Assembly: GCF_055900595.2 (NCBI RefSeq)
Contig: NZ_CM148325.1
Length of the DNA: 64,000 nt
Reading direction: 5' to 3' (one strand)
Made by a program: the position numbers and the translations under genes. Below, one piece after another: positions 4,800 through 24,573 of this stretch. Under the pieces are notes generated by a model. The model was not told the origin of the DNA, searched no databases, and saw only the letters and a list, made by a program, of their open reading frames with translations. Numbering within the stretch: position 1 is the stretch's first letter; each line of letters starts with the position of its first letter.

Positions 4800-5119
4800 G
4801 CAATCACCATGTACACACAAAAAAACCGCTTGCAACAACAAACCGGAACAGGGTACGCTTCCCCCGCACCTCATAAAACGGGTGTCGGGTTTCGCAGCCT
4901 GCTGACTAGCAAAGCGCACAACCGCGCCAGCGGTTTTTTTGTGCGTACTGTATTGCCACGTCTTTTTCGCACACGAATTATGGCGGGGCGTACGGGGCCG
5001 ACTTCGGTCGGGCCGGGTTCTTTGCTAGCCGGTACTGCGAACCTCGTACGTCTCGCCACCCACAGTTTCGCAGCTCTGGATGGTGAGTTTTTAAAACTTA
5101 CTAGCAAAGAGGCCACACC
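4800..5119 (+). promoter_or_regulatory. Structured intergenic region with repeats and hairpins
   Basis: CTAGCAAAG occurs three times: direct at about 4905 and 5100, inverted (CTTTGCTAG) at about 5022. Also a CCGAC-TTCG-GTCGG hairpin with a UUCG-type loop at about 5008-5021 and a terminator-like CCGCGCCAGCGG plus T7 at about 4922-4940. Confidence 0.4.
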
Positions 5120-5338
5120 ATGGCAAACCGCAAACAGCGCCGCGCTACTGCGGAGCATCACCACGTCCGCGCCCAAATCGACAAACGCCTTTTCCGCGCA
5201 TCACGCGTTGCACGCATCATGCACATCAACATGCTGCATGAACGCAGAGGGGCACTACCGAACACCTATATCGCCTCCGTTTTCAGCTATCTGGCGGACG
5301 ATCTCGCCGAGCTGCAACACCTCATTAACCAGCACTGA
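5120..5338 (+). CDS. Hypothetical protein (72 aa)
   Basis: ORF track; AAAGAGG Shine-Dalgarno 8 nt upstream of the ATG. Confidence 0.5.
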   Translation: MANRKQRRATAEHHHVRAQIDKRLFRASRVARIMHINMLHERRGALPNTYIASVFSYLADDLAELQHLINQH

Positions 5339-5782: not shown

Positions 5783-8272
5783 ATGGAGTTCGTCAGAGAC
5801 TGGCAAAAACCGCGCCCCGCTATCGGGCGCGAAGGCTTACCCGTACCTGAAACCGCACTGGATACCATCCTGAAGTGTTACCGCGCAGACGAAGAGCGCG
5901 CACTGCACGCTGAAGAGCAGGGTCATCCGCTTGCGGGCACAACCATCGGTAACGCGATCGACAAGTGGGAAGGCGCACAGGAGCGCCAGGAAGAGGCCAT
6001 CACGCTCACACAGGAAGCGAGAAGACACCCGCCCACCCTTATTGAGGAAACCCTCAAAGAGCTGGACACCCTGCCCAAGTGGTTGAGGCTGCCGCTGATT
6101 AAGCACCTGAACTTTTTAAGGCGCAAACAGGAGGACGAACAACAGAAAGGCAAGCGCGGCAAGGACACCCGCAAATATGAGCGCTTCCTGAAAAACGGCA
6201 TCCCCGCACGTCTTCGCCGTATTCGTGAGATTAACGCTCGCTTTGCACCGTTAAGTTTTCAGGCCGCTGCCATGCGCGAGAGTCTGGAAGAACTGATCAC
6301 ACTGCCGAACCTGAGCCGTGAACGCATCCAGAAAATAGCCGTACTGCTTGCCAGCGCCGTTAAAATGCATCTTGCCGACGCAATGGACAAGGCCCGCGAA
6401 ATAACAGGGAACGACAAAGACGACAACCTGAACAACTGGCTGATTGCCTACCAGTATATTGGTCGCCGTGTCCTGAAGCTGGGGATCACCCCACCATACT
6501 GGAGCGCCCTTGAACTCCGCCCCGACCGCAGAAGCCCCCCGGACGTGACACTGGTTCCGGGCGCTGTTTTGCGCCTGAACGACGCCGAATGGTGGAATAA
6601 AAAACTTCGCCAGATGCACGACGTCTGGCGTGAGGAACTTTTACGTGCAGCGGGCCTTGTATCCCGCCAGACCTCCGTTTATGTGAGCCGTGAAGCGCTG
6701 GCAGACTTCCGCGAAAAACAGGCCCGTACCCGCGATTTTCTCAAAGCGCACGACGTGGAGAACGAAGACGGCGAACGCATCAGTCTGGAAGATATCTACT
6801 ACGCCAGTACATCCAACCCGCATAACCGCCGCAACGAGATGATGGCGTGCGTTAAGGGAATGGAGCTTATCGCACAGGAACGCGGCGACGTGGCCTTCTT
6901 CGTCACGGTCACAGCCCCGTCTCGTTTTCACAGCGTCACCGACGCAGGCACGCTGAACCCGAAATACAAAGGCGCAACCGTAAAGGACGCCAGCGACTAT
7001 CTGGTTTATAACTTCTTCGCCTCCGCCCGCAAACTCATCAAAAAAGAGAAGCGGGGCTGGTACGGCATTCGCACCGTGGAGCCTCACCACGACGGCACGC
7101 CCCACTGGCACATGCTGGTATTCACAAGCCCTGAGAACGAAGAGCGCATCACGGAAATCATGTGCAATGCCGCCATTCGCGAAGACCGGGCAGAGCTGGG
7201 CGACGACATCACCCCGCGCTTCAAGTGCGAGAAGATAGATCCCGAAAAAGGCACGCCAACCAGCTACATCGCCACCTACATAGGCAAAGGCATTGACGCC
7301 GCTGCATTCGGCGACACGGATCCAAAAACAGGTAAACCGCCCGTTGACCACGAAAGCGGAAAACCTATGGCGGACACCGTGGAAAACGCCGTCGCCTGGG
7401 CGCGCCTGCATCGCATTCGCCAGTTCCAGTTCTTTGGCCTCCCTTCCCGTCAGGTGTGGCGTGAGTTCCGCCGCCTTGCCGGACAAATGGCACGCAACCC
7501 GAAGGGGCCGCAGGCACTGACCAACCCCAAAGCCGACGCCCTCCTTGTTGCAGCCGATACGGGGTGTTTTGCCAGCTACATCATGCATCAGGGCGGTGTG
7601 CTCATTCCCCGTAGTGAATATCTGGCCCGCACAGCCTACGTCACCGCAGAAGAGCCGAACAATTACAGCGAATTCCCCGAGCGCATTTACGGTATCCGCA
7701 TGCCGGAACTGGGGGAGGACTTCACGTTATGCACCCACCCGGAAGAGTGGAAAATCGTCAGAAAGGAACCGGAACCAGACAACCGCACGGGCGAGGGTTT
7801 TGACCTTCAGGGCGGCCCCGCCGCCCCTTGGACTCGTGGCAATAACTGTCACCCTGACGAAAAAACAACCAACAACAGCACACAAACAGAACAGTCAGAG
7901 TGGGCAAAACTGCCCCCCTTACCCCCATCGTCGGACGGTTTTGTGAGCTGGTTTAAGTCGCTTAAGAGGCCGGACAGGAAAAAACTACAAAGATTGCTCA
8001 AAAAACGCACCGAAGAGAGTCGCCAGAACGCCAGCGGCGGCACCGACACACCCACCGACACCATTAACCTGGGCGTTGTGCTGCCGGAACTGCCGGAAAT
8101 CGTGCAAGTCCGCCGCGATCTGGAAGCGCTGGGCGCGGACTTCCCCGAAGCAATGGCCCATTCCGTCTTTATGGGTGCCCGCGTTCGTCTGGGTGACGGT
8201 CGCACCGTTCACCGCGACGAGCAGACCGGGCGCATCACCGTCACCAGTCTGCAACCGGAGGCGAAACCATGA
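5783..8272 (+). CDS. A: Replication initiation endonuclease, P2 gpA family
   Basis: 829-aa ORF at the position of P2 gene A (between the early genes and the portal); large rolling-circle-type replication protein. Confidence 0.75.
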   Translation: MEFVRDWQKPRPAIGREGLPVPETALDTILKCYRADEERALHAEEQGHPLAGTTIGNAIDKWEGAQERQEEAITLTQEARRHPPTLIEETLKELDTLPKWLRLPLIKHLNFLRRKQEDEQQKGKRGKDTRKYERFLKNGIPARLRRIREINARFAPLSFQAAAMRESLEELITLPNLSRERIQKIAVLLASAVKMHLADAMDKAREITGNDKDDNLNNWLIAYQYIGRRVLKLGITPPYWSALELRPDRRSPPDVTLVPGAVLRLNDAEWWNKKLRQMHDVWREELLRAAGLVSRQTSVYVSREALADFREKQARTRDFLKAHDVENEDGERISLEDIYYASTSNPHNRRNEMMACVKGMELIAQERGDVAFFVTVTAPSRFHSVTDAGTLNPKYKGATVKDASDYLVYNFFASARKLIKKEKRGWYGIRTVEPHHDGTPHWHMLVFTSPENEERITEIMCNAAIREDRAELGDDITPRFKCEKIDPEKGTPTSYIATYIGKGIDAAAFGDTDPKTGKPPVDHESGKPMADTVENAVAWARLHRIRQFQFFGLPSRQVWREFRRLAGQMARNPKGPQALTNPKADALLVAADTGCFASYIMHQGGVLIPRSEYLARTAYVTAEEPNNYSEFPERIYGIRMPELGEDFTLCTHPEEWKIVRKEPEPDNRTGEGFDLQGGPAAPWTRGNNCHPDEKTTNNSTQTEQSEWAKLPPLPPSSDGFVSWFKSLKRPDRKKLQRLLKKRTEESRQNASGGTDTPTDTINLGVVLPELPEIVQVRRDLEALGADFPEAMAHSVFMGARVRLGDGRTVHRDEQTGRITVTSLQPEAKP

Positions 8273-8679
8273 ACCGTTATCATTGTGTACTGCCGCGCCA
8301 CTACTTCGGTCAGATTATGCGCTCGCGTATTCCGGCGGTCACGCTGCGAAACCTGAGCACGGTACCGCAGCCGGGCGATGAGCTGGAAATCGCCGTAGCA
8401 GGCCCTGACCGTTCAGCCAGCTGCGTGACCGCCGACGTGCTGAACGCCGTGCCCGTAGGTGGTGACTGGCTGGTTGCCATCCGCTTCCGCCAAGACCCGT
8501 TCGCACCTGAACCGCTCACCCCCGCAGGCCGCATCATGCAGAACTGGCGGGATGAACGCGCGAAGGCGAACTGCGAAAAACTGATTAACAGGATTGCCAC
8601 GACAAACCGACATGCCGCGCTGGCGCGCCGGATATACCCCGCAAAATCAACACAACCAACAGGAGTAAAAGGCCCATGA
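8269..8679 (+). CDS. Hypothetical protein (136 aa), translationally coupled to A
   Basis: ATGA overlap with the A stop; no recognised family. Confidence 0.5.
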   Translation: MNRYHCVLPRHYFGQIMRSRIPAVTLRNLSTVPQPGDELEIAVAGPDRSASCVTADVLNAVPVGGDWLVAIRFRQDPFAPEPLTPAGRIMQNWRDERAKANCEKLINRIATTNRHAALARRIYPAKSTQPTGVKGP

Positions 8680-8804
8680 AAAGAATCGCCGGAACTGACT
8701 ACCAGGAGCTGCTTAAAGCGGTGGAAAACTACCGTTCAGCGCTGGTGTGGTGTGAGATTAAGCCCTGTGACCCGGGAGCAGTTAAGGATTGCAACCGGCG
8801 CGTG
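8676..8804 (+). CDS. Small hypothetical protein (about 42 aa), translationally coupled
   Basis: ATGA overlap with the upstream ORF stop; AGGAG Shine-Dalgarno. Below ORF track cutoff; low confidence. Confidence 0.3.
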
Positions 8805-8937
8805 AGGACATTCAGCGCGTAATTGGCTACCGCTATGTAGCAGCCATTATTGACCTTGTGAATGAACTGGAGGAAGCAAAAGAGCGCATCGCAGAACTGG
8901 AAACCCAGAATAACCCCAACCAGCAGGAGCAGAAGCC

Positions 8938-9519
8938 ATGAAAAAAAGAGACCTTAAAAAACACCTCCGTAGTCAGATTGAATATTTTGAAGATAAGGCT
9001 GCAAAAACAGGGCTTTCCGGTAAAGAGAACATGAACTTCAGGGCACACCTCCTGACGTGGAGAATACTTAATATCACGAGAGATGGACTTGAGCCGCTAG
9101 CCTACCTGATGGAAGATGGCGAGACCCTCATACAGGATCCCAATGTGGAAATGGAGAAGAAAGAGATGGACCTGCCGATAATCGGGCTGTTTGAGATCCC
9201 TGAACTAATAGGACGTTATGAACACGAAAACCGCCAGCTTGCCGCCTTTTTATCCGTGACAATCGAACGACTGGAAACCGTGAAACACGATATTCCGTTC
9301 GGTTTTGATGAGCGCACCGAGGGTGATTTGCTCAGCTTTCAGATTGCCCTGAACGTGCTCACCGCAGAGCCTTCTGCGTGGCTACGCCCGGAACGGCACC
9401 ACAACACGTTCGCATTTACCGTAATTCCCTACGATGCCGCACAGGAAGAGGATAACTTCGAGACCAGGCTTGTTCCCCTGTATCAGATTGCGGATTTCTA
9501 TACGTTGATTCGCTGGTAA
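8938..9519 (+). CDS. Uncharacterised cargo protein (193 aa)
   Basis: ORF track; AGGAG Shine-Dalgarno; acidic, no TM, no motif I can assign; followed by an intrinsic terminator. Confidence 0.55.
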   Translation: MKKRDLKKHLRSQIEYFEDKAAKTGLSGKENMNFRAHLLTWRILNITRDGLEPLAYLMEDGETLIQDPNVEMEKKEMDLPIIGLFEIPELIGRYEHENRQLAAFLSVTIERLETVKHDIPFGFDERTEGDLLSFQIALNVLTAEPSAWLRPERHHNTFAFTVIPYDAAQEEDNFETRLVPLYQIADFYTLIRW

Positions 9520-9532
9520 TCCCCCACAGTAA

Positions 9533-9558
9533 AACAGCCCGACCGGGCTGTTTTTTTA
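9533..9558 (+). terminator. Intrinsic terminator
   Basis: ACAGCCCGACCGGGCTG hairpin followed by T7. Confidence 0.6.
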
Positions 9559-9614
9559 TCTGATATTTTTGATAACGTTGACCGGCTCATTAGCAAAAAA
9601 GCAAAGAGGAAAAC

Positions 9615-10001
9615 ATGAAAGCCCGTATCGGGATCATCCCGGAAAAAGCCCTGCGCCAGCACCTGATTGATATTGCCAGAGGGAAGCGAAAACCACAGCC
9701 CGACGAGCCAAAGGTATGGTTTTCATCCATCAATGCGGCAGGCCAGACGCTGAGCAATGAAAATATCGCCCTTCTGCGTCTTATGAATGAGGAGAAGCCG
9801 CAGACCATGACCGCACTTGCGGAGTTATCCGGCAGAAAACTGAGCAACCTGTCTGTAACCCTGAAAATGCTGAGCAGCTACGGTTTTGTCAGTCTGGAAA
9901 AGAAAGGGAATACTGTACACCCGAAAGCACTTTTTACCGATTTTGAAATCATCGTTGATCCGTCCGTGGGTTCAGTACATCGCGCCACCGCCCGGCCCTG
10001 A
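9615..10001 (+). CDS. Small winged-HTH-like DNA-binding protein (128 aa)
   Basis: ORF track; AAGAGGA Shine-Dalgarno; central segment MTALAELSGRKLSNLSVTLKMLSSYGFVSL resembles a wHTH recognition region. Confidence 0.5.
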   Translation: MKARIGIIPEKALRQHLIDIARGKRKPQPDEPKVWFSSINAAGQTLSNENIALLRLMNEEKPQTMTALAELSGRKLSNLSVTLKMLSSYGFVSLEKKGNTVHPKALFTDFEIIVDPSVGSVHRATARP

Positions 10002-10013
10002 AGTGCGCAATAA

Positions 10014-10040
10014 ACAGCCCCGTTCGGGGCTGTTATTTAT
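10014..10040. terminator. Bidirectional intrinsic terminator
   Basis: CAGCCCCGTTCGGGGCTG hairpin flanked by T-rich sequence on both strands, between convergent genes. Confidence 0.55.
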
Positions 10041-10411
10041 TCCAGAATCAGCTGTTCAGGTGTGCAGCCGTACAGTCTGGCAAGGCGCTCAATATTTGCC
10101 CTGCGCGGGCGTTCTGTTCTTTCGAATTCGGACACGGTAGCCTGCCTGATACCCAGCGCATCCGCCACCTGCTTTTGCGTCATTCCGCGATAGATTCGCC
10201 ACGCCGCCTGCATGGTGCAGCCACGTTCCGAGAGGATGTTGACCACCTCGTTGGGATACAGCGTATCAGGCGATGCACTCGGTTCGTTCTGGACGTCCTC
10301 GTAGAGTTCGTCAAGGTCGCTGTCTCCTGCCAGTTTTTCAAACAACGCCACTGGCAGAATGACGGATACCCTGTTACCCGCACCGTCAGTAATAAACTGA
10401 ATCTGACTCAT
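10037..10411 (-). CDS. HigA-like antitoxin, XRE-family HTH (124 aa)
   Basis: C-terminal HTH (MTQKQVADALGIRQATVSEFERTERPRRANIERLARLYGCTPEQL); immediately downstream of a RelE/ParE-like gene. Confidence 0.65.
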   Translation of the reverse strand: MSQIQFITDGAGNRVSVILPVALFEKLAGDSDLDELYEDVQNEPSASPDTLYPNEVVNILSERGCTMQAAWRIYRGMTQKQVADALGIRQATVSEFERTERPRRANIERLARLYGCTPEQLILE

Positions 10412-10459
10412 TTGCCCCTCCTGCTAAACATCGGTTTATTTTTTAATTTGCTGCCGGTG

Positions 10460-10484
10460 ATAAAAAACGGCGGGTCGCCCCGCC
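10460..10484 (-). terminator. Intrinsic terminator-like hairpin between toxin and antitoxin genes
   Basis: On the minus-strand transcript: GGCGGG-GCGA-CCCGCC followed by GUUUUUUAU, starting directly after the toxin stop codon. Confidence 0.45.
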
Positions 10485-10757
10485 TTAGTATGTTGTCGAG
10501 GTTCTCCGCTGAATACGGAGGATCCTGATAACCACTATCTGCCCTCCCTCAATCGTGAACCTGACACGGTAATGATTTACCCTGAGTCTGTACTCCCCGC
10601 CCGAGTCAGTGAGCTTTTTAATATCCAGATTCTGGAACTTCGGATAGCCATAAAGCGCGTTAACTTTCTCGCGTAAGGATTTCTGATCCCTCGCTGGCAA
10701 AACCCGTAAATCTTTGATTGCCCGAGGGGTCCACATGATTTCAGTCGTCATAAACAC
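10485..10757 (-). CDS. RelE/ParE-superfamily toxin, HigB-like position (90 aa; start uncertain)
   Basis: MWTPRAIKDLRVLPARDQKSLREKVNAL...YRLRVNHYRVRFTIEGGQIVVIRILRIQRR fits the RelE/ParE pattern; toxin-first gene order is HigBA-like. Confidence 0.65.
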   Translation of the reverse strand: MFMTTEIMWTPRAIKDLRVLPARDQKSLREKVNALYGYPKFQNLDIKKLTDSGGEYRLRVNHYRVRFTIEGGQIVVIRILRIQRRTSTTY

Positions 10758-10860
10758 ACCGGAAGCAAATTATTAAAGAGCCGTGCCCGCTGGCACACCT
10801 TAAATATAGGTTTTAACCCCTATATTGTCAAACAAAATCCCTATATCATGAAGTAAAAAA
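10758..10860. promoter_or_regulatory. Putative operator/promoter of the HigBA-like module
   Basis: ATATAGG-N8-CCTATAT palindrome plus a second CCCTATAT direct repeat, directly upstream of the toxin gene. Confidence 0.4.
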
Positions 10861-10879
10861 GCACCTCCCGCGACCTCCC

Positions 10880-11130
10880 TTTCCGGTGCACGAAAGTGCA
10901 CAAATTTGCACAATTTTTTTGAACGACTTTTTGCCCTTCCGGCCCGTGTGGCGTCTGGATCCGTCGGGGATCCGTGCGTGCACGAAAAAAGGCCTTTTTC
11001 TGCGCGCAGGTGACGGGGGAACAGCCCGCGTTTCAGGGGGTAAATAGCATTCCCTGAACGATGTTGCAGTGACACAACAGAATGGCTGTATTTCTCACGC
11101 TGAGCGTGAAAAAGACGTAAGGGCTTTTGA
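10880..11130. other. Palindrome-dense non-coding stretch (candidate structured RNA or protein-binding array)
   Basis: Consecutive perfect palindromes/hairpins: GTGCAC-GAAA-GTGCAC (10886-10901), GGATCC-GTCGG-GGATCC (10957-10973), CGTGCACG, AAAAAGGCCTTTTT (10986-10999), CTGCGCGCAG (10999-11008), CACGC-TGA-GCGTG (about 11096-11108). Confidence 0.4.
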
Positions 11131-11340
11131 TTTGATGGGGTGAAAGATAAGGCCGTCAAAATCGCACTGAGGCAGCGAGAATATGTCGTCAGAGTTGCGG
11201 GGTTGCGTAAGCATCCGCCCGGCGATGATGGCTACAGGGCTGGAGATGTTGTGAAATTATCTGAAGGAATAACCAGCTTGCAGGAGAACCCGGGCAAAGT
11301 CAGAATAGCGGCAGGCATCAACTCAAAAGAGGATAATGTC

Positions 11341-11844
11341 ATGAGCCACTTTAATGATTTATGCCAGATCAATCGTGAAGCTGAAGAAAAACGCGCTGAG
11401 GCAGCTCAAATTTTGCGGGATGAAGCGGCAAGGCTGATTGATTTCTATGAAGAATGGCTGGGGCTTCCATCCATGTACTGGGAAGACGATGATGGCGACC
11501 TGCACCGCTACGTGGAGACAGGCTTGCCATGTAAGACAGCGGCGGATTTTAGTCCTCTTTCAGTCCACAATATCGCATCTGCACCAGACAATATTTTCCG
11601 CATGGCCGTACGAACCTGGGTTAAGTCATCTGACAGCAGCTACCCGGTAAGCGTGGTTATTGCACTTGAATTATATTCAGTAGATGCGGAACGGGTGTCT
11701 CTGAGAGTCCGGGTGGAAGACGATATTTCTGTTCGCGTATTTATCAATAAACCCAGCGAAGAAGCCTGGGGCGATGTTGTTATGCACATGAAAAAGCACA
11801 TCGCTAATCACCTGAAAAAGCGAGCGCCATCAGCACTTCGTTAA
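11341..11844 (+). CDS. Uncharacterised cargo protein (167 aa from ATG 11341; ORF track gives a 234-aa version from GTG 11140)
   Basis: Strong AAGAGGA Shine-Dalgarno before ATG 11341; sits in the position P2 uses for old, next to the portal gene; followed by the palindrome GGGGCATAAATTTTTTATGCCCC. Confidence 0.5.
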   Translation: MSHFNDLCQINREAEEKRAEAAQILRDEAARLIDFYEEWLGLPSMYWEDDDGDLHRYVETGLPCKTAADFSPLSVHNIASAPDNIFRMAVRTWVKSSDSSYPVSVVIALELYSVDAERVSLRVRVEDDISVRVFINKPSEEAWGDVVMHMKKHIANHLKKRAPSALR

Positions 11845-11910
11845 GCAGAGCTGGAGAGTCGGGGCATAAATTTTTTATGCCCCGGCGAAGCAGCAGACAA
11901 GCGAAGCGCG

Positions 11911-12966
11911 TCAGGATATGGGCCGGGTGTCTAACAGTGCGTAAGGGTTAAAACGGATCACCTCTTCGCCCAGCCAGTCGTTGACGTGTTTCATTGCTTC
12001 CATGACGGGCATCAGTTCGTTAATGGCAAACACACGGGCTGCCTTCTCCACATCCCCGAATGACCCCTTCTCACCCGGCATGGCCCCCATCAGCTGAGGT
12101 GGCACGCGGTGCACAGCCAGCACGTCATCACGCGATGCGGCCTTGACGTTCATGAACTCATCCTTTGCGGTGATTTGCTGAAACGGCAAAATCTGTACGC
12201 CATCCTTACCACCTCCCGCCGCGTGGATGAGCAGATTTTTAAACGCCCCGCCACCACGCGCGCTTTGCAGTGTTTCCCGCAGTTTTTCCATGCTTTCACG
12301 GTCAACCTGCGCCGCACCGATGTAGACAATACAGCCCGCGTGTGAGCCGTTATCGTAGTAGAGCTTGCGGAAGATATCGGCGGAATGTGACAGGCTGGCA
12401 GACAGCAGGCCGCCCAGGTAATCCGGCATCCCGTAAATCTCCTGGTTGATATCAGGATTCATCAGGTGGCATATCGTCCCCTCACGAAAGCGGTACTCTT
12501 CCTGTCCTTCCTGTATATACCACCATGATTTCATATCGCTGCCACGTCGCATGTATTTCGCCAGCGCCCGGCGCAGGGCCAGCGGTTCGCCAAGCATGTT
12601 GCGCCGCAGCTCAAGACAGGCATTACCGAACACAAACCAGTCCATCGCCACCCCGGCGAACTCCTGGCGGGACAGCAGAGGATGTGGAATATAGCAGCCC
12701 AGCAGCACATTACGTTTGAAGCTGAGCGCCGACTGGTGCCAGGACGTCTGGCGGGCAGCCCGTGCCAGTCCGTACCAGTCAACGGGCGTTTCAAACCACC
12801 GCCCGTTGTCGGCGCAGTACATGCTGTCCAGCAGGTCGGCCCCTGACAGCCGGTAAGGTCCTTCAAACGTGAAGGCACTCAGTGTCGGGTCGCTTCGCAG
12901 GGAATCCGCAAGGCTGCCCTGCGCTGCGCGGGCGTTCGTACGTCGTTGTTTATTTTTTCTGCTCAT
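11911..12966 (-). CDS. Q: Portal protein, P2 gpQ family
   Basis: 351-aa ORF divergent from the capsid operon and adjacent to the terminase large subunit, as in P2. Confidence 0.8.
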   Translation of the reverse strand: MSRKNKQRRTNARAAQGSLADSLRSDPTLSAFTFEGPYRLSGADLLDSMYCADNGRWFETPVDWYGLARAARQTSWHQSALSFKRNVLLGCYIPHPLLSRQEFAGVAMDWFVFGNACLELRRNMLGEPLALRRALAKYMRRGSDMKSWWYIQEGQEEYRFREGTICHLMNPDINQEIYGMPDYLGGLLSASLSHSADIFRKLYYDNGSHAGCIVYIGAAQVDRESMEKLRETLQSARGGGAFKNLLIHAAGGGKDGVQILPFQQITAKDEFMNVKAASRDDVLAVHRVPPQLMGAMPGEKGSFGDVEKAARVFAINELMPVMEAMKHVNDWLGEEVIRFNPYALLDTRPIS

Positions 12967-14717
12967 CAGAACTCCGTAACACTGAAGGGGGCGGCATCAT
13001 GTTCACCGCCGACAGGTTCGTTGATAACGGCCAGCATGGTGGCCCATGCAAGATCGCCATGGCTTACGCCTCTTGCGCGATCTGTTTCGTAGGTGATAAA
13101 TCCGGCCTGCGTTTTTGTTTTGCGTACCGCGTTAAAGGCGCTCACCAGTTCGCGCTCGCTGCGGTCGTACTCCCACCGCCCGGCGCGCATGAGCTGCAGC
13201 ATCTTCAGAACCAGCGTGCGCTTTGATGACAGGGTGAAGGTGTAGGGAATGGCTGCCGGAAAAAAGCGCTTCACAATCTGATACACCGCATCCCCGTGAC
13301 CGCCGGTTACGTCAATACCGATATGCTCAACGTTATAGCGAAAGGTGAACTCTTCAATCACCTTCGCCTGCGCCTCAAACTCCAGCCCCTGCACCCGCCG
13401 CGTCTCCACGGTGCGAAAACGCCCGCCCGGTACGGCTGGCGGCACCACCACGACAACCGCCCCGCTGTCACCGTTCCCGCTACTGCCGTTGGCGTCGTAC
13501 CCAATCCACACAGGGCGGTTCCCCATCGGACGCGGTGCAAACGGCTTCCAGTCCGGCCACTCGTCGTATCCGTCAACACCGCAGCCAATCAGGATATTCA
13601 GGTTAAATGCCGATTCCCCTTCGCGAGCAAATTCACACATGTAGAGATTGCGGAACTCGTCTTCAGTGTTATTGCGCCGGATTTTGTCAATGTTGGTTAA
13701 CGTCCATCCCTGACTGACCACATCTTCCAGCGTCACAATTTGCCGCCAGATATAGTCAGGACAGATAAGGCCGTTATGAAGCGCATTCCAGCTCACATCA
13801 AAATGCTGACGTTTATGAGTACGAAGCCCTTCATTCCAGTGATCGCCGTTCCAGTATGCATACGCCTCATGTGTTTCACTTGATGGCGTGGAAAAATAGG
13901 TACACCGCAAACCATCCAGCGTTGCCATAGCAGCAGCCACCTTGCGCAGCTCTGCGAAACGCCCCGTCCAGAAAAACTCATCAAAATACAGATTCCCTGT
14001 GTACGCTTGCGCGGTGGCCGCAGAAGTGCCGAGAAAATGCAGCTCTGCACCGTTGGAGAGGATGACTTTATCGCCCCCTTTCAGTTCCACATCAACTTCA
14101 GATGCAGCCTTCTGAATAATGCTTTTAAACTGGAGCGCCTGACGACGAGACGCAGACAAAAAAATCTGGTTACGCTGGTAAGGTTGTGCCACATCGTCAC
14201 GCAGCGCCATCAGCAGCGCTTCCTGCGCAAAATACCAGGTCGCCCCAATCTGGCGGGATTTCAGGATCATCCTGTCAGTAATTCCGGCACGCTCACAGGC
14301 ACCGATAGCATCAAGCCATTTGCGCTGGTGTCCGGCCAGCCTGTCGGTAATTTTTTCCCGCAGCGCCGCGATCTGTTCCGGCGTGAAATGATTTTTGTGT
14401 TTTTTCGCCCGGCCTTTCTTTCCTGTTGCCGTCTCATCCGGCAGACCGTCATGCAGCTTTTTAAGCTGACGGGTCAGCAAATCAATTTCCTTAAAGTCCC
14501 CGCCTGTTTTATTCTGTTTTTCCGTGAGCTGAATGAGTCGCGCATCCATGGACTGCGTGACACGCTGAACCGGGGGCGTCTCATCCCACTGGTCGCGTTT
14601 TTTCCACGAATGGATCGTGTTCTGGTTGATACCCATAAGGCGGGAAATTTCCGCAACAGGGTAACCCTGCCAGTACAGCTGGCGTGCCCGCTGGCGAACA
14701 AATGTATCCTGAATCAT
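12966..14717 (-). CDS. P: Terminase large (ATPase) subunit, P2 gpP family
   Basis: 583 aa with an N-terminal HTH (YWQGYPVAEISRLMGINQNTIHSW); position matches P2 P. Confidence 0.85.
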   Translation of the reverse strand: MIQDTFVRQRARQLYWQGYPVAEISRLMGINQNTIHSWKKRDQWDETPPVQRVTQSMDARLIQLTEKQNKTGGDFKEIDLLTRQLKKLHDGLPDETATGKKGRAKKHKNHFTPEQIAALREKITDRLAGHQRKWLDAIGACERAGITDRMILKSRQIGATWYFAQEALLMALRDDVAQPYQRNQIFLSASRRQALQFKSIIQKAASEVDVELKGGDKVILSNGAELHFLGTSAATAQAYTGNLYFDEFFWTGRFAELRKVAAAMATLDGLRCTYFSTPSSETHEAYAYWNGDHWNEGLRTHKRQHFDVSWNALHNGLICPDYIWRQIVTLEDVVSQGWTLTNIDKIRRNNTEDEFRNLYMCEFAREGESAFNLNILIGCGVDGYDEWPDWKPFAPRPMGNRPVWIGYDANGSSGNGDSGAVVVVVPPAVPGGRFRTVETRRVQGLEFEAQAKVIEEFTFRYNVEHIGIDVTGGHGDAVYQIVKRFFPAAIPYTFTLSSKRTLVLKMLQLMRAGRWEYDRSERELVSAFNAVRKTKTQAGFITYETDRARGVSHGDLAWATMLAVINEPVGGEHDAAPFSVTEF

Positions 14718-16878: not shown

Positions 16879-17661
16879 ATGCTGACACCGGCACAGGCTC
16901 ATTTCCAGCGCGTGATGGCTTTACGGGCAGGAACGGCAGCAGAAAACGAGGATATCGTGGCCCGCACGGCTCATGAGCAGGTCCTTCACCGTCTGCGCCT
17001 GGCACAGCAACGCATAAAGGGCGTCCAGGCAAAAGCGGCAAAGGCCGCGCTCAAGCGTGAAATGCTGCCGGGTTTTGCAGGCTGGATAGACGGCACGCTG
17101 GAAGCCGACGGCGGACAGCAGGATGAGGTGATAGCCACACTCATGGTGTGGGCCGTGGACTGTGGCGACCTGGCGCTTGCACTGCGCATCGGGGATTATG
17201 TGGTTCGCCACAACCTCACGATGCCTGACAACTTCGGGCGTACGGCAGCCACGGTACTGACCGAGGAAATCTGCAACCCTGTTCTGACACAGGCCGGAAC
17301 GGATGCACACGCCGATTTGTCCGGCTACATCGAACCGCTGGACACCCTCTGGCAAATTGTCGCGAACCGGGACATGCCCGATGAGGTCCGCGCCAAGCTG
17401 TGCAAGGCATGCGCCTTTGCCCGTCGTGGCCTGACCGATGCCGACAGCATGGCGGTGAGTCTGAAGCTGTTCCGTGAGGCAATGCACCTTAACCCGAATG
17501 CGGGGGTAAAACGTGAGATTGCCACGCTTTCACGGGCCCTGAAAAAGGCCGGACAGGATGAAGCCGCTGCCGCACAGGAGCCTGCGGCACAGAAAGATAC
17601 AACCAGAGAACAGACCACGACGCCGAAGGCGAAAGCGAAAGCGAAGGCGAAACGTGGTTAA
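16879..17661 (+). CDS. M: Terminase small (endonuclease) subunit, P2 gpM family
   Basis: 260 aa at the M position; lysine/alanine-rich C-terminal tail. Confidence 0.75.
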   Translation: MLTPAQAHFQRVMALRAGTAAENEDIVARTAHEQVLHRLRLAQQRIKGVQAKAAKAALKREMLPGFAGWIDGTLEADGGQQDEVIATLMVWAVDCGDLALALRIGDYVVRHNLTMPDNFGRTAATVLTEEICNPVLTQAGTDAHADLSGYIEPLDTLWQIVANRDMPDEVRAKLCKACAFARRGLTDADSMAVSLKLFREAMHLNPNAGVKREIATLSRALKKAGQDEAAAAQEPAAQKDTTREQTTTPKAKAKAKAKRG

Positions 17662-22740: not shown

Positions 22741-23461
22741 CAGGAAAAAAACAGACAGCGCACAGCACAGTACATCACTGCTTCCACCGTCCGCAGGGCC
22801 ATTCATGCGCGCCACAGAGGCGACAGGAGTACGCATCAGTACCATACCGGTGGACGCCGACACCCTGTGGTCGCCGGACCGCTGCCCTGCTCACCTCCTG
22901 CCCTACCTTGCATGGGCATGTTCCGTTGACCGCTGGGACCGCAACTGGCCGGAAGAGACCAGACGACAGGTGATTGGCCAGTCCTGGAAGGTACACCGCC
23001 AGAAAGGAACGGTCAGCGCACTGAGGGAAACAGCCGCAGCATTCGGTTATGAGATGACCATCAGTGAATGGTGGGAGCATGGAGGGCAGCCGGGCACCTT
23101 TACTGTGACCATCGGGGCAGACACTCAGGGCATCGGCCCTGAAACATGGCTGGAGATGGAGGATCTGCTCAATGATGCACGTCCGGTTTCACGTCATATG
23201 ACGGGGCTTTATGCCGCCCTGCGTTCTGGCGTGACGGTTTACTGCGCTGCGGGAGCAGGCTGTGATGAGCTTGTAACCATTCACCAGAAAGCTCGCGCCT
23301 CCCTGGCGGGCCAGGTGACCATCATCGCAGCAGGAGACACACACACAACCGACAGTGTGACCGTACTGCCGGGGGTTCCGTCAGGTATGTACGGGGAGAT
23401 CTGTATCCGTACCGGCGCAGGTATATTCGTGAGTGAGATTGTGGAGGTTATCACCTTATGA
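22733..23461 (+). CDS. I: Baseplate protein, P2 gpI family
   Basis: ATG 22733 with AAGGAGG Shine-Dalgarno; overlaps the J stop. Confidence 0.75.
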   Translation: MSDRKKTDSAQHSTSLLPPSAGPFMRATEATGVRISTIPVDADTLWSPDRCPAHLLPYLAWACSVDRWDRNWPEETRRQVIGQSWKVHRQKGTVSALRETAAAFGYEMTISEWWEHGGQPGTFTVTIGADTQGIGPETWLEMEDLLNDARPVSRHMTGLYAALRSGVTVYCAAGAGCDELVTIHQKARASLAGQVTIIAAGDTHTTDSVTVLPGVPSGMYGEICIRTGAGIFVSEIVEVITL

Positions 23462-24573
23462 ACACCGATTTTTATTCCGTTCTGACGGATGCCGGGCTGA
23501 AAAAACTGGCGGCAGCCGCAGCATCAGGGAATCAGATGAAAATCACCCATATGGCTGTAGGCGACGGAAACGGAAAAGCCGTAACACCCGGCAGGGCCGA
23601 CACCAGGCTTGTCAGGGAAAAATACCGTGCGCCACTGAACAGTCTGGAAGAAGACACAGAGAGACCGGGGCATGTTATCGCAGAAATGGTGATACCTGAA
23701 AAACAGGGAGGGTGGTGGATCAGAGAATTCGGATTATTCGACGAAGACGGCGGAATGATTGTTACAGGCAAATTTCCTGACACATGGAAGCCTGCACCTG
23801 GTCAGGGTGGAGCACGACTGATATCAGTGAAAGTGGTTGTGGCAGTATCACATACAGAAAACATTGTGCTGAAAGTGGATCCTTCTGTTGTCATGGCAAC
23901 CCGGGAATGGGTGAACACAAAAGCAGAGCAGTTAAAGAAAGAGCTCAGACAACCTGATGCAACCACCAAAACAAAAGGCATTGTTCAGCTTAGCAGTGAC
24001 ATCAACAGCACCTCTGAAACGCAGGCTGCCACCCCCGGAGCGGTAAAAGCCGTGAATGATCGTGTGGACGGAAAACAGGACGCGGATCCCACGCTCACAT
24101 CTCTGTCCGGGAAAAATGCACAGCAACTGAGGCAGCTTCTGGGGCTGGGCACGCTTGCCACCCTGAACAGGGGCACCGGTTCAGGGAATGTGCCGGACAT
24201 GAGTCACTTTGCGAGTAAAAAAGCAGACTACGGTTACCAGTGTTTTCCTGGCGGCATAATGATCCAGTGGCTGCGGATCCCCTCAGACCACACAGAAAGA
24301 GCTGTCAGTCAGGAAGCCCGGGTGGCACTAAGCGGCGTGCGACTGTTTTCAGTGGAGGGTAACTGGAACGGTAATAACATGATTAAGACCCTGGCAAACT
24401 ACCAGTGGCCGAGAGTTTTCGGGGCAATTTATGCGACCGTTGCAACCAGGAATCACGGATCTGCATGGCGAGTATATCCGGTGTCCGCGAACAAGGATGT
24501 GCGTGTCGTATCCATTGCCTGGGCGGGAGAAGGTACAGATGACACTTATGTGGTTGGGGTGGGAAGAGTATGA
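23458..24573 (+). CDS. H: Tail fibre protein, gpH-like (371 aa)
   Basis: N-terminus typical of P2-family tail fibres (MNTDFYSVLTDAGLKKLAAA...); host-range-variable C-terminus. Confidence 0.8.
   Translation: MNTDFYSVLTDAGLKKLAAAAASGNQMKITHMAVGDGNGKAVTPGRADTRLVREKYRAPLNSLEEDTERPGHVIAEMVIPEKQGGWWIREFGLFDEDGGMIVTGKFPDTWKPAPGQGGARLISVKVVVAVSHTENIVLKVDPSVVMATREWVNTKAEQLKKELRQPDATTKTKGIVQLSSDINSTSETQAATPGAVKAVNDRVDGKQDADPTLTSLSGKNAQQLRQLLGLGTLATLNRGTGSGNVPDMSHFASKKADYGYQCFPGGIMIQWLRIPSDHTERAVSQEARVALSGVRLFSVEGNWNGNNMIKTLANYQWPRVFGAIYATVATRNHGSAWRVYPVSANKDVRVVSIAWAGEGTDDTYVVGVGRV

Follow-up and report, generated by a model that had tools for sequence, protein, structure and literature searches.

The window, by which we mean the whole 64-kb stretch of DNA analyzed here, carries a P88-like prophage (Xuanwuvirus, Peduoviridae) of E. 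coli, and the phages closest to it were the P88-like members of Xuanwuvirus. The ORFs for the portal protein and for the large and small terminase subunits are all full-length with complete domains, and the scaffold, capsid and small-terminase genes follow the large terminase gene in the P2 order (Table 1). The large terminase has 86% amino acid identity to that of P88 and 46% to P2 gpP. On the other side of the portal gene (11911-12966) the layout, read from the replication gene A (gpA, 5783-8272), is a variable accessory-gene hotspot (8269-10886) followed by a non-coding block (10887-11051), which is on the same side of the portal gene as the cos site of P2. An accessory hotspot on the gpA side has been described (PMC9122126).

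Table 1. Features of the portal gene region and of the predicted cos region in window coordinates.
Feature	Position	Strand	Remarks
Variable accessory-gene hotspot	8269-10886	.	between replication gene A (5783-8272) and the predicted cos
HTH partner of toxin	10037-10411	-	in the hotspot
RelE/ParE-type toxin	10485-10757	-	directly before the predicted cos
Predicted cos region, P88/Xuanwuvirus type, non-coding, 165 bp	10887-11051	+	homologous to the P2/186/P4 cos region
Four TGCAC boxes	starts 10887, 10897, 10907, 10979 (span 10887-10983)	+	candidate terminase recognition elements
Predicted 19-nt cohesive end GGTGACGGGGGAACAGCCC	11009-11027	+	ungapped register against the P2, 186 and P4 ends
P88-like conserved segment	11052-11265	+	missing from satellites; holds an inverted repeat (11088-11116)
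582-bp insert	11266-11847	+	replaces 9 nt (CTGATACAG) of P88 (alignment)
Cargo gene, 167 aa, phrog_5091	11341-11844	+	AAGAGGA ribosome-binding site 7 nt upstream
Convergent intergenic spacer, 66 bp	11845-11910	.	cargo ORF stop 11842-11844, portal stop 11911-11913
Perfect palindrome	11860-11884	.	arms CGGGGCATAAA / TTTATGCCCCG, spacer 3 nt
19-mer GGCGAAGCAGCAGACAAGC singled out by the sequence-only reading	11884-11902	+	resemblance to the P2 end at chance level
Portal gene (P2 gpQ homologue), full length	11911-12966	-	Pfam Phage_portal; 44% aa identity to P2 Q
Large terminase (P2 gpP homologue), full length	12966-14717	-	Pfam Terminase_5, Terminase_6N, Terminase_6C
Small terminase (P2 gpM homologue)	16879-17661	+	Pfam Phage_term_smal, E = 4e-37

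Three observations concern the remainder of the prophage. The toxin and HTH genes at the end of the hotspot are accompanied by a TTGACA/TATATT promoter-like site and by 21-nt direct repeats (10815-10856; the whole unit spans 10037-10860), and the same pair with the same repeat/operator-like sequence is found before the cos block of the Klebsiella phage 3LV2017 (locus L015, 700-1560), where the rest of the hotspot differs. The tail-fibre ORF (23458-24573, 371 aa) matched only the first ~220 residues of fibre families that are 570-860 aa long, and the tail fibre may be short, modular or truncated, a state that touches the formation of infectious particles and not packaging. At the left edge of the window an integrase gene seems to run off the sequence (1-110, - strand); over 95 bp, this gene has 82% identity with the second of the integrase genes in a satellite element that is described below.

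The spacer at 11845-11910 separates two convergent genes: a + strand ORF, whose last position is 11844, and the - strand portal gene, whose stop codon occupies 11911-11913. A sequence-only reading had singled it out as the place where a cos site would be expected next to the portal gene, and had seen no clear P2-type cos there. Our searches bore this out, as there was no site with three or fewer mismatches to the P2 cohesive end anywhere in the 64-kb window, and the interval was matched neither by a profile of the P2, 186 and P4 cos regions nor by an iterated version of it. The palindrome reported in the interval was also confirmed, with two 11-nt arms (11860-11870 and 11874-11884) that are 100% complementary and are separated by 3 nt. 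With the exception of its first 3 nt (11845-11847, the tail of a 582-bp insert), the interval is kept in the phages P88, P88_4B11 and 500465-2, in all of which the palindrome is present. The predicted RNA fold of the 66 nt had an energy of -30.7 kcal/mol on the + strand (z = -5.5) and of -24.0 kcal/mol on the - strand, which is the portal sense (z = -3.4), and on each strand the fold was better than those of all 200 shuffled sequences. A search of positions 10600-12000 against Rfam placed a “gyrA RNA” on the hairpin at 22 bits, below the gathering score of 45, and this sub-threshold match was taken as chance.

The sequence-only reading had also noted a 19-mer at the edge of the palindrome, GGCGAAGCAGCAGACAAGC, as a loose likeness of the P2/186 cohesive end, and loose it proved to be: it agrees with the P2 end (GGCGAGGCGGGGAAAGCAC) at 10 of 19 positions and with the 186 end at 8 of 19. 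Since 1,654 of the 19-mers in the window (both strands counted) reach at least 10/19 against the P2 end, the likeness is at chance level. The expectation of a cos site at this spot came from the arrangement in P2, where cos was said to lie within about 100 bp of the portal gene. The nearness to the portal gene is correct; the figure is too small, as the P2 portal stop is at position 187 and cosL at positions 1-19, leaving a gap of ~167 bp. The portal CDS of 186 begins at 196.

The position of the hairpin suggests what its role may be. The palindrome starts 26 nt past the portal stop and 16 nt past the stop of the convergent cargo gene, and a strong hairpin was found 8-30 nt past the portal stop in every relative that was checked, the sequences of these hairpins being mutually unrelated. 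In P2 and 186 the terminators annotated a few bases past the portal stop, tQ and tW, belong to the terminase-portal operon, and the window resembles both phages in having a strong stem-loop at this conserved position, no more than 30 nt from the portal stop. The 11-bp perfect stem provides the stable, G+C-rich stem-loop of a rho-independent terminator. The P2 and 186 hairpins are followed by T-tracts (TTTTTT and TTTTT, respectively), whereas the window hairpin has no U-rich tract 3' of the stem on either strand, the - strand continuing with ACTCTCCAGC and the + strand with GCGAAGCAGC. The window hairpin differs further from tQ and tW in that its sequence is unrelated to theirs and in that a terminator scan made no call at 11860-11884. 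Based on its position, we lean slightly toward the hairpin being a terminator or a 3'-end-stabilizing structure, and it is because of the missing U-tract that we do not rate terminator activity more highly. The palindrome would then be the positional equivalent of P2 tQ and 186 tW and would now close the convergent cargo gene as well.

We considered whether the cos site could nevertheless lie within 11845-11910, with the palindrome or the GGCGAAGC... string acting as a strongly diverged cleavage site by the portal gene. Such a site would, like that of P2, be near where the portal gene ends, and the palindrome is both strong and conserved among the P88-like phages. However, the 19-mer matches P2 at chance level only, the cos profile has no match there in its classical or its iterated form, and a satellite element that does not have this sequence shares the block at 10887-11051 instead. 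In addition, the hairpins that distant relatives have in this place are unrelated to one another, which suits a terminator better than a recognition site, and the corresponding hairpins of P2 and 186 are annotated as terminators. We regard a cos site in the interval as extremely improbable. The palindrome and the GGCGAAGC... string are unrelated to cos, and 11845-11910 is a conserved spacer that closes the terminase-portal operon.

P88 has the same hairpin and spacer by its portal gene, and ~300 bp beyond them it has a non-coding stretch that recurs in the window at ~10887-11265. The first part of this stretch (10887-11051), whose limits are the BLAST boundaries against two satellite loci, is very probably the cos region of the prophage, with GGTGACGGGGGAACAGCCC as its cohesive end; it would have been displaced from the portal gene by a cargo cassette, with the spacer and hairpin at 11845-11910 having no part in it. 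The case for this assignment rests on the context of the block, on its being shared with a satellite, and on homology to known cos regions through intermediates, each of which is considered below.

The block lies ~0.9 kb from the portal stop and is strongly conserved. It is 90-93% identical in the P88-like phages, the portal and terminase DNA of which is at most 79% identical, and it was found in 1,139 of 5,426 complete E. coli genomes (21%), with identical copies of the region in several complete E. coli genomes, LH50-c and CS5L being two examples. A conservation profile of 96 distinct IMG/VR sequences had a sharp onset at ~10888, the major-allele frequency rising from ~0.4-0.5 (through 10886) to at least 0.93 (10888 onward), and this onset coincides with the end of the variable accessory-gene hotspot. 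Positions 11000-11029 were almost invariant in these 96 sequences, and 10995-11049 are identical between the window and P88. The segment that follows the block, 11052-11265, is also conserved among P88-like phages (major-allele frequency ~0.9-1.0) and holds a short ORF with a GTG start (42 codons, annotated in P88), which in the window is continuous, in frame, with the cargo gene.

Apart from the span of the four TGCAC boxes at the left of the block, no 110-nt stretch in the window has four or more copies of this motif (Poisson P ~5e-6), and in a MAFFT alignment the four boxes are aligned with the boxes of P2, 186 and P4, which makes them likely terminase recognition elements on the strength of this comparison. 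The predicted end to their right, GGTGACGGGGGAACAGCCC, has 13 of 19 positions in common with the P2 end, a match that on its own is within chance because 24 sites in the window reach at least 13/19. This sequence was unchanged in 116 of 117 related IMG/VR loci, and the ends of two other elements bridge it to P2, namely GGTGACGGGGGGAAAGCCC in the P2-like element L007, which agrees with the P2 end at 15/19, and GGCGAGGCGGGGGAGCAAG in 3LV2017. The gapped register of the MAFFT alignment and the ungapped register differ by 2 nt, so the nick positions, which we infer from these alignments, are uncertain by ~2 nt.

For comparison with the predicted end, we looked for mapped ends and found no virion-end data for P88-like phages, no paper containing the predicted end sequence in a full-text search, and no mention of cos in the P88 paper. 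Two other sources of genome termini were set aside. The start of the P88_4B11 record (TGCCCTTCC..., corresponding to window ~10933) was rejected as a physical end, since a reference genome, and not mapped ends, had guided the choice of position 1 in that record (PMC6969025). The contig ends of the IMG/VR loci were likewise rejected as physical termini, since nearly all of these loci had been predicted as prophages within isolate genomes and not one of them stops at the block, and they were used for conservation and for the cos-to-hairpin distance only. Separately, we observed that positions 70-100 of locus L004 (Xuanwuvirus P884B11, NC_049391.1), which are the equivalent of window 11009-11035 in a virion-derived assembly, read GGTGACGGGGGGACAG|GTTTCAGG. 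Five nucleotides (CCCGC) are missing where the predicted end has its 3' edge, and there is an A-to-G change. These differences may be real variation or may be an assembly artefact at joined linear ends; if they are an artefact, the physical end would be marked indirectly.

Homology of the block to the classical cos regions was traced through intermediates and not through direct similarity to P2, 186 and P4. The classical profile, built from 245-nt cos regions of these three and searched with nhmmer, gave no significant match in the window, the best (E = 1.2) being outside the block. The same profile did match 3LV2017 upstream of its portal gene (E = 7e-9), and as this locus had been retrieved via the portal gene and not via cos, its match is independent. 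It also matched four further loci at the homologous block (E = 8e-4 to 2e-3), two of them satellite loci (L014 and L008) and two of them other P2-like elements (L007 and L013). When the profile was rebuilt with intermediates, it had one strong match in the window, at 10889-11035 (E = 4.4e-23), an E-value that is partly circular because most of the intermediates had been chosen for their likeness to the window block. The second match of the iterated profile, at 2851-2931 (E = 0.003), lies within a small hydrophobic ORF and has no cos core, and was rejected as spurious. That ORF (MNILISWLILILAIICAVGIMRI..., 2846-2970, in the early region) has a 13/19 match to the P2 end on the opposite strand.

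The MAFFT alignment showed the TGCAY boxes and the cos core to be co-linear across P2, 186, P4 and the P88-type sequences. What they share is a pair, GTGCAY-N4-TTGCAY, ~110-125 nt before the predicted nick and a proximal TGCAY box ~31 nt before it. The Klebsiella phage 3LV2017 links both types, having P88-like flanks (GTGCACAAATTTGCAC ... GCGCGCA) and a P2-like core (GGCGAGGCGGGG). The cos regions of P2, 186 and P4 are described as having a 55-bp core and 19-nt 5' cohesive ends in the accounts that cite Ziermann & Calendar 1990 (PMC9122126, PMC3931495, PMC5694545). Based on these comparisons, we propose, by homology with P2, 186 and P4, that the terminase (the gpM and gpP homologues) would recognize the block at 10887-11051, that the TGCAC boxes upstream of GGTGACGGGGGAACAGCCC would serve as recognition elements, and that staggered nicks around GGTGACGGGGGAACAGCCC would produce 5' cohesive ends of ~19 nt.

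The window agrees with P2, 186 and P4 in the order and orientation of accessory genes, TGCAY boxes, cos and portal gene, in having counterparts of the GTGCAT-N4-TTGCAT pair and of the proximal TGCAT that those genomes carry at their right ends, in a 19-mer that is G-rich and begins with GG, and in that the region is common to a satellite without packaging genes. It differs from them in having TGCAC and not TGCAT boxes and in having a GCGCGC motif before the end and not after it. Moreover, the window terminase is just 46% identical to P2 gpP, the 19-mer agrees with that of P2 at just 13/19, a direct profile search is blind to the block, and the cos is ~0.9 kb from the portal stop as compared to ~170 bp in P2, with the cleavage sites of the window being predicted ones. 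An end starting with GGTGA, as in the window, has precedents in the P2 family in 3LV2017 and in the Ralstonia phage phiRSA1, whose experimentally determined end is 5'-GGTGAGGCGGGGTCCAAC, beginning with GGTGAGGCGGGG (PMC5694545); the 3' half of the 19-mer differs from the window in both, and the end of 3LV2017 is itself a prediction.

The second line of evidence came from a satellite-like element of ~12 kb that is found beside hpt in other E. coli strains. It is represented by E. coli JML285 (L014 1-11700, NZ_AP024114.1) and OkiPb01677 (L008 1-8700), with the cos-like block at 8001-8166 and 5001-5166, respectively. Its genes are those for two integrases, an Icd-like protein, a primase of 889 aa (phrog_1139), a MazEF pair and a zinc finger of the ogr/delta-like kind. 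It also has a major capsid gene of its own, from the P2 family (phrog_70), whose product is extended by ~119 aa at the N terminus; portal, terminase and tail genes are all absent from the element. When the two satellite loci were compared to the whole 64-kb window, they shared 10887-11051 at 79-82% identity, and the other matches were 95 bp of the integrase gene and one short match of at most 39 bp per locus. The block is thus the main DNA common to the helper phage and the satellite, as P2 and P4 share a core cos signal that has been described as their only homologous region (PMC9122126). The satellite version of the block was matched at 90% identity or more in ~56 E. coli genome records. The hpt-side satellites, with their own P2-family capsid gene, a P4-alpha-like primase and an ogr/delta-like activator, could not be placed among the described satellite families.

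These comparisons bear on whether the block might be conserved for another reason, as a regulatory or promoter, replication or partition site, with the cos located elsewhere and unrecognized. An array of TGCAC boxes at 10-nt spacing would suit any DNA-binding protein, and the adjacent segment at 11052-11265 is likewise conserved without being shared by the satellites. Yet the block is homologous lengthwise, via intermediates, to the experimentally defined cos region of P2 and P4, its place between Q and the gpA-side hotspot is the canonical one, it is the main DNA in common with a satellite that has different neighboring genes, and the iterated profile provides no other candidate in the window. 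We consider a role other than packaging to be quite unlikely, and we retain the assignment of 10887-11051 as the cos region.

The sequence-only reading had left two options for the packaging site, that it had diverged or that it was elsewhere, and each of these turned out to be partly true: the predicted site is elsewhere, at 10887-11051, where it is well conserved, and it has diverged, with 13/19 positions in agreement with the P2 end and with the classical profile blind to it. The doubt that this reading implied about packaging was not upheld, given that the block and its P88 counterpart have an identical core, that the predicted end is kept in 116 of 117 loci, and that portal, TerL and TerS are full-length. 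A more severe version of that doubt is that the functional cos has been lost or the prophage is otherwise packaging-defective, the conserved block being a relic. The integrase end of the prophage is cut by the window edge and the tail-fibre ORF at 23458-24573 matches the N-terminal part of fibre families only, either of which could be read in that way. Against this, positions 10995-11049 are identical to those of P88, an inducible, plaque-forming phage (PMC5285337), the predicted end is the same in 116/117 related loci, the portal, TerL and TerS genes are full-length with complete domains, and several E. coli genomes hold identical copies of the region. A relic is, in our judgment, very unlikely. 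The cos appears to be intact and diverged from P2, and nothing here suggests a packaging defect.

The distance of the cos from the portal stop, 0.9 kb, is explained by the ~300-bp gap of P88-like phages together with the 582-bp cassette. Among 112 related loci, the distance from cos to hairpin was ~257 nt in 107 and ~830 nt, the state of the window, in three. Likewise, a query spanning the insert was covered to at least 80% in 28 of the 1,141 E. coli genomes with any match. The cassette carries one gene, the protein of which matched phrog_5091 over its full length in a search of PHROGs (E = 3e-52); for this CDS, PGAP chose an in-frame GTG start at 11251. Neither Pfam, PADLOC and NCBIfam nor a tblastn search of the phage collection gave a match to the protein, and the three databases pointed to no toxin, retron or known defence domain in the cassette.

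A gene that lies between cos and the terminator of the portal gene and is missing from close relatives is what characterizes a moron, and the cargo gene has these properties. The interval between cos and gpQ is a known insertion hotspot, holding ctx in phiCTX and ORF1-4 in phiRSY1, and in a 186-like prophage the retrons Ec67 and Ec86 are flanked by cos and a terminator (PMC5694545). The window is like these cases in having a foreign cassette between cos and the post-portal hairpin that close relatives are missing, and it differs from them in its cargo, the single phrog_5091 gene. We propose that the cassette with this gene would have entered at this known moron hotspot, between cos and the post-portal hairpin. 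The two junctions of the insert (11273-11299 and 11845-11870) are loosely alike over ~25 nt (CCAGCTTGCAGGAGAACCCGGGCAAAG and GCAGAGCTGGAGAGTCGGGGCATAAA, respectively), and MAFFT aligned the right junction of P88 with the left junction of the window. This likeness may be a remnant of the recombination event by which the cassette arrived, or chance.

Taken as a whole, the arrangement of cos, moron slot, terminator and portal gene is an ordinary one for P2-family phages. What is mildly new is the predicted P88-type cos together with a capsid-encoding satellite that shares the block. It provides a testable prediction of cos and cohesive ends for the P88-like (Xuanwuvirus) phages. These phages are common, given that ~21% of complete E. 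coli genomes have the block. A correct position for cos is of use for the genome ends in phage records, for the limits of the defence hotspot beside cos, and for spotting helper-dependent satellites.

On this last point, we tentatively speculate that the P88-type cos, with its TGCAC boxes and GGTGACGGGGGAACAGCCC, could represent a packaging-specificity group apart from that of P2, 186 and P4, which the ~12-kb hpt-side satellites would exploit. We hold this to be possible and no likelier than that. If this speculation is correct, divergence of cos would partition helpers and satellites in E. coli, and these satellites would set the capsid with their own capsid protein and not with a Sid-type external scaffold.
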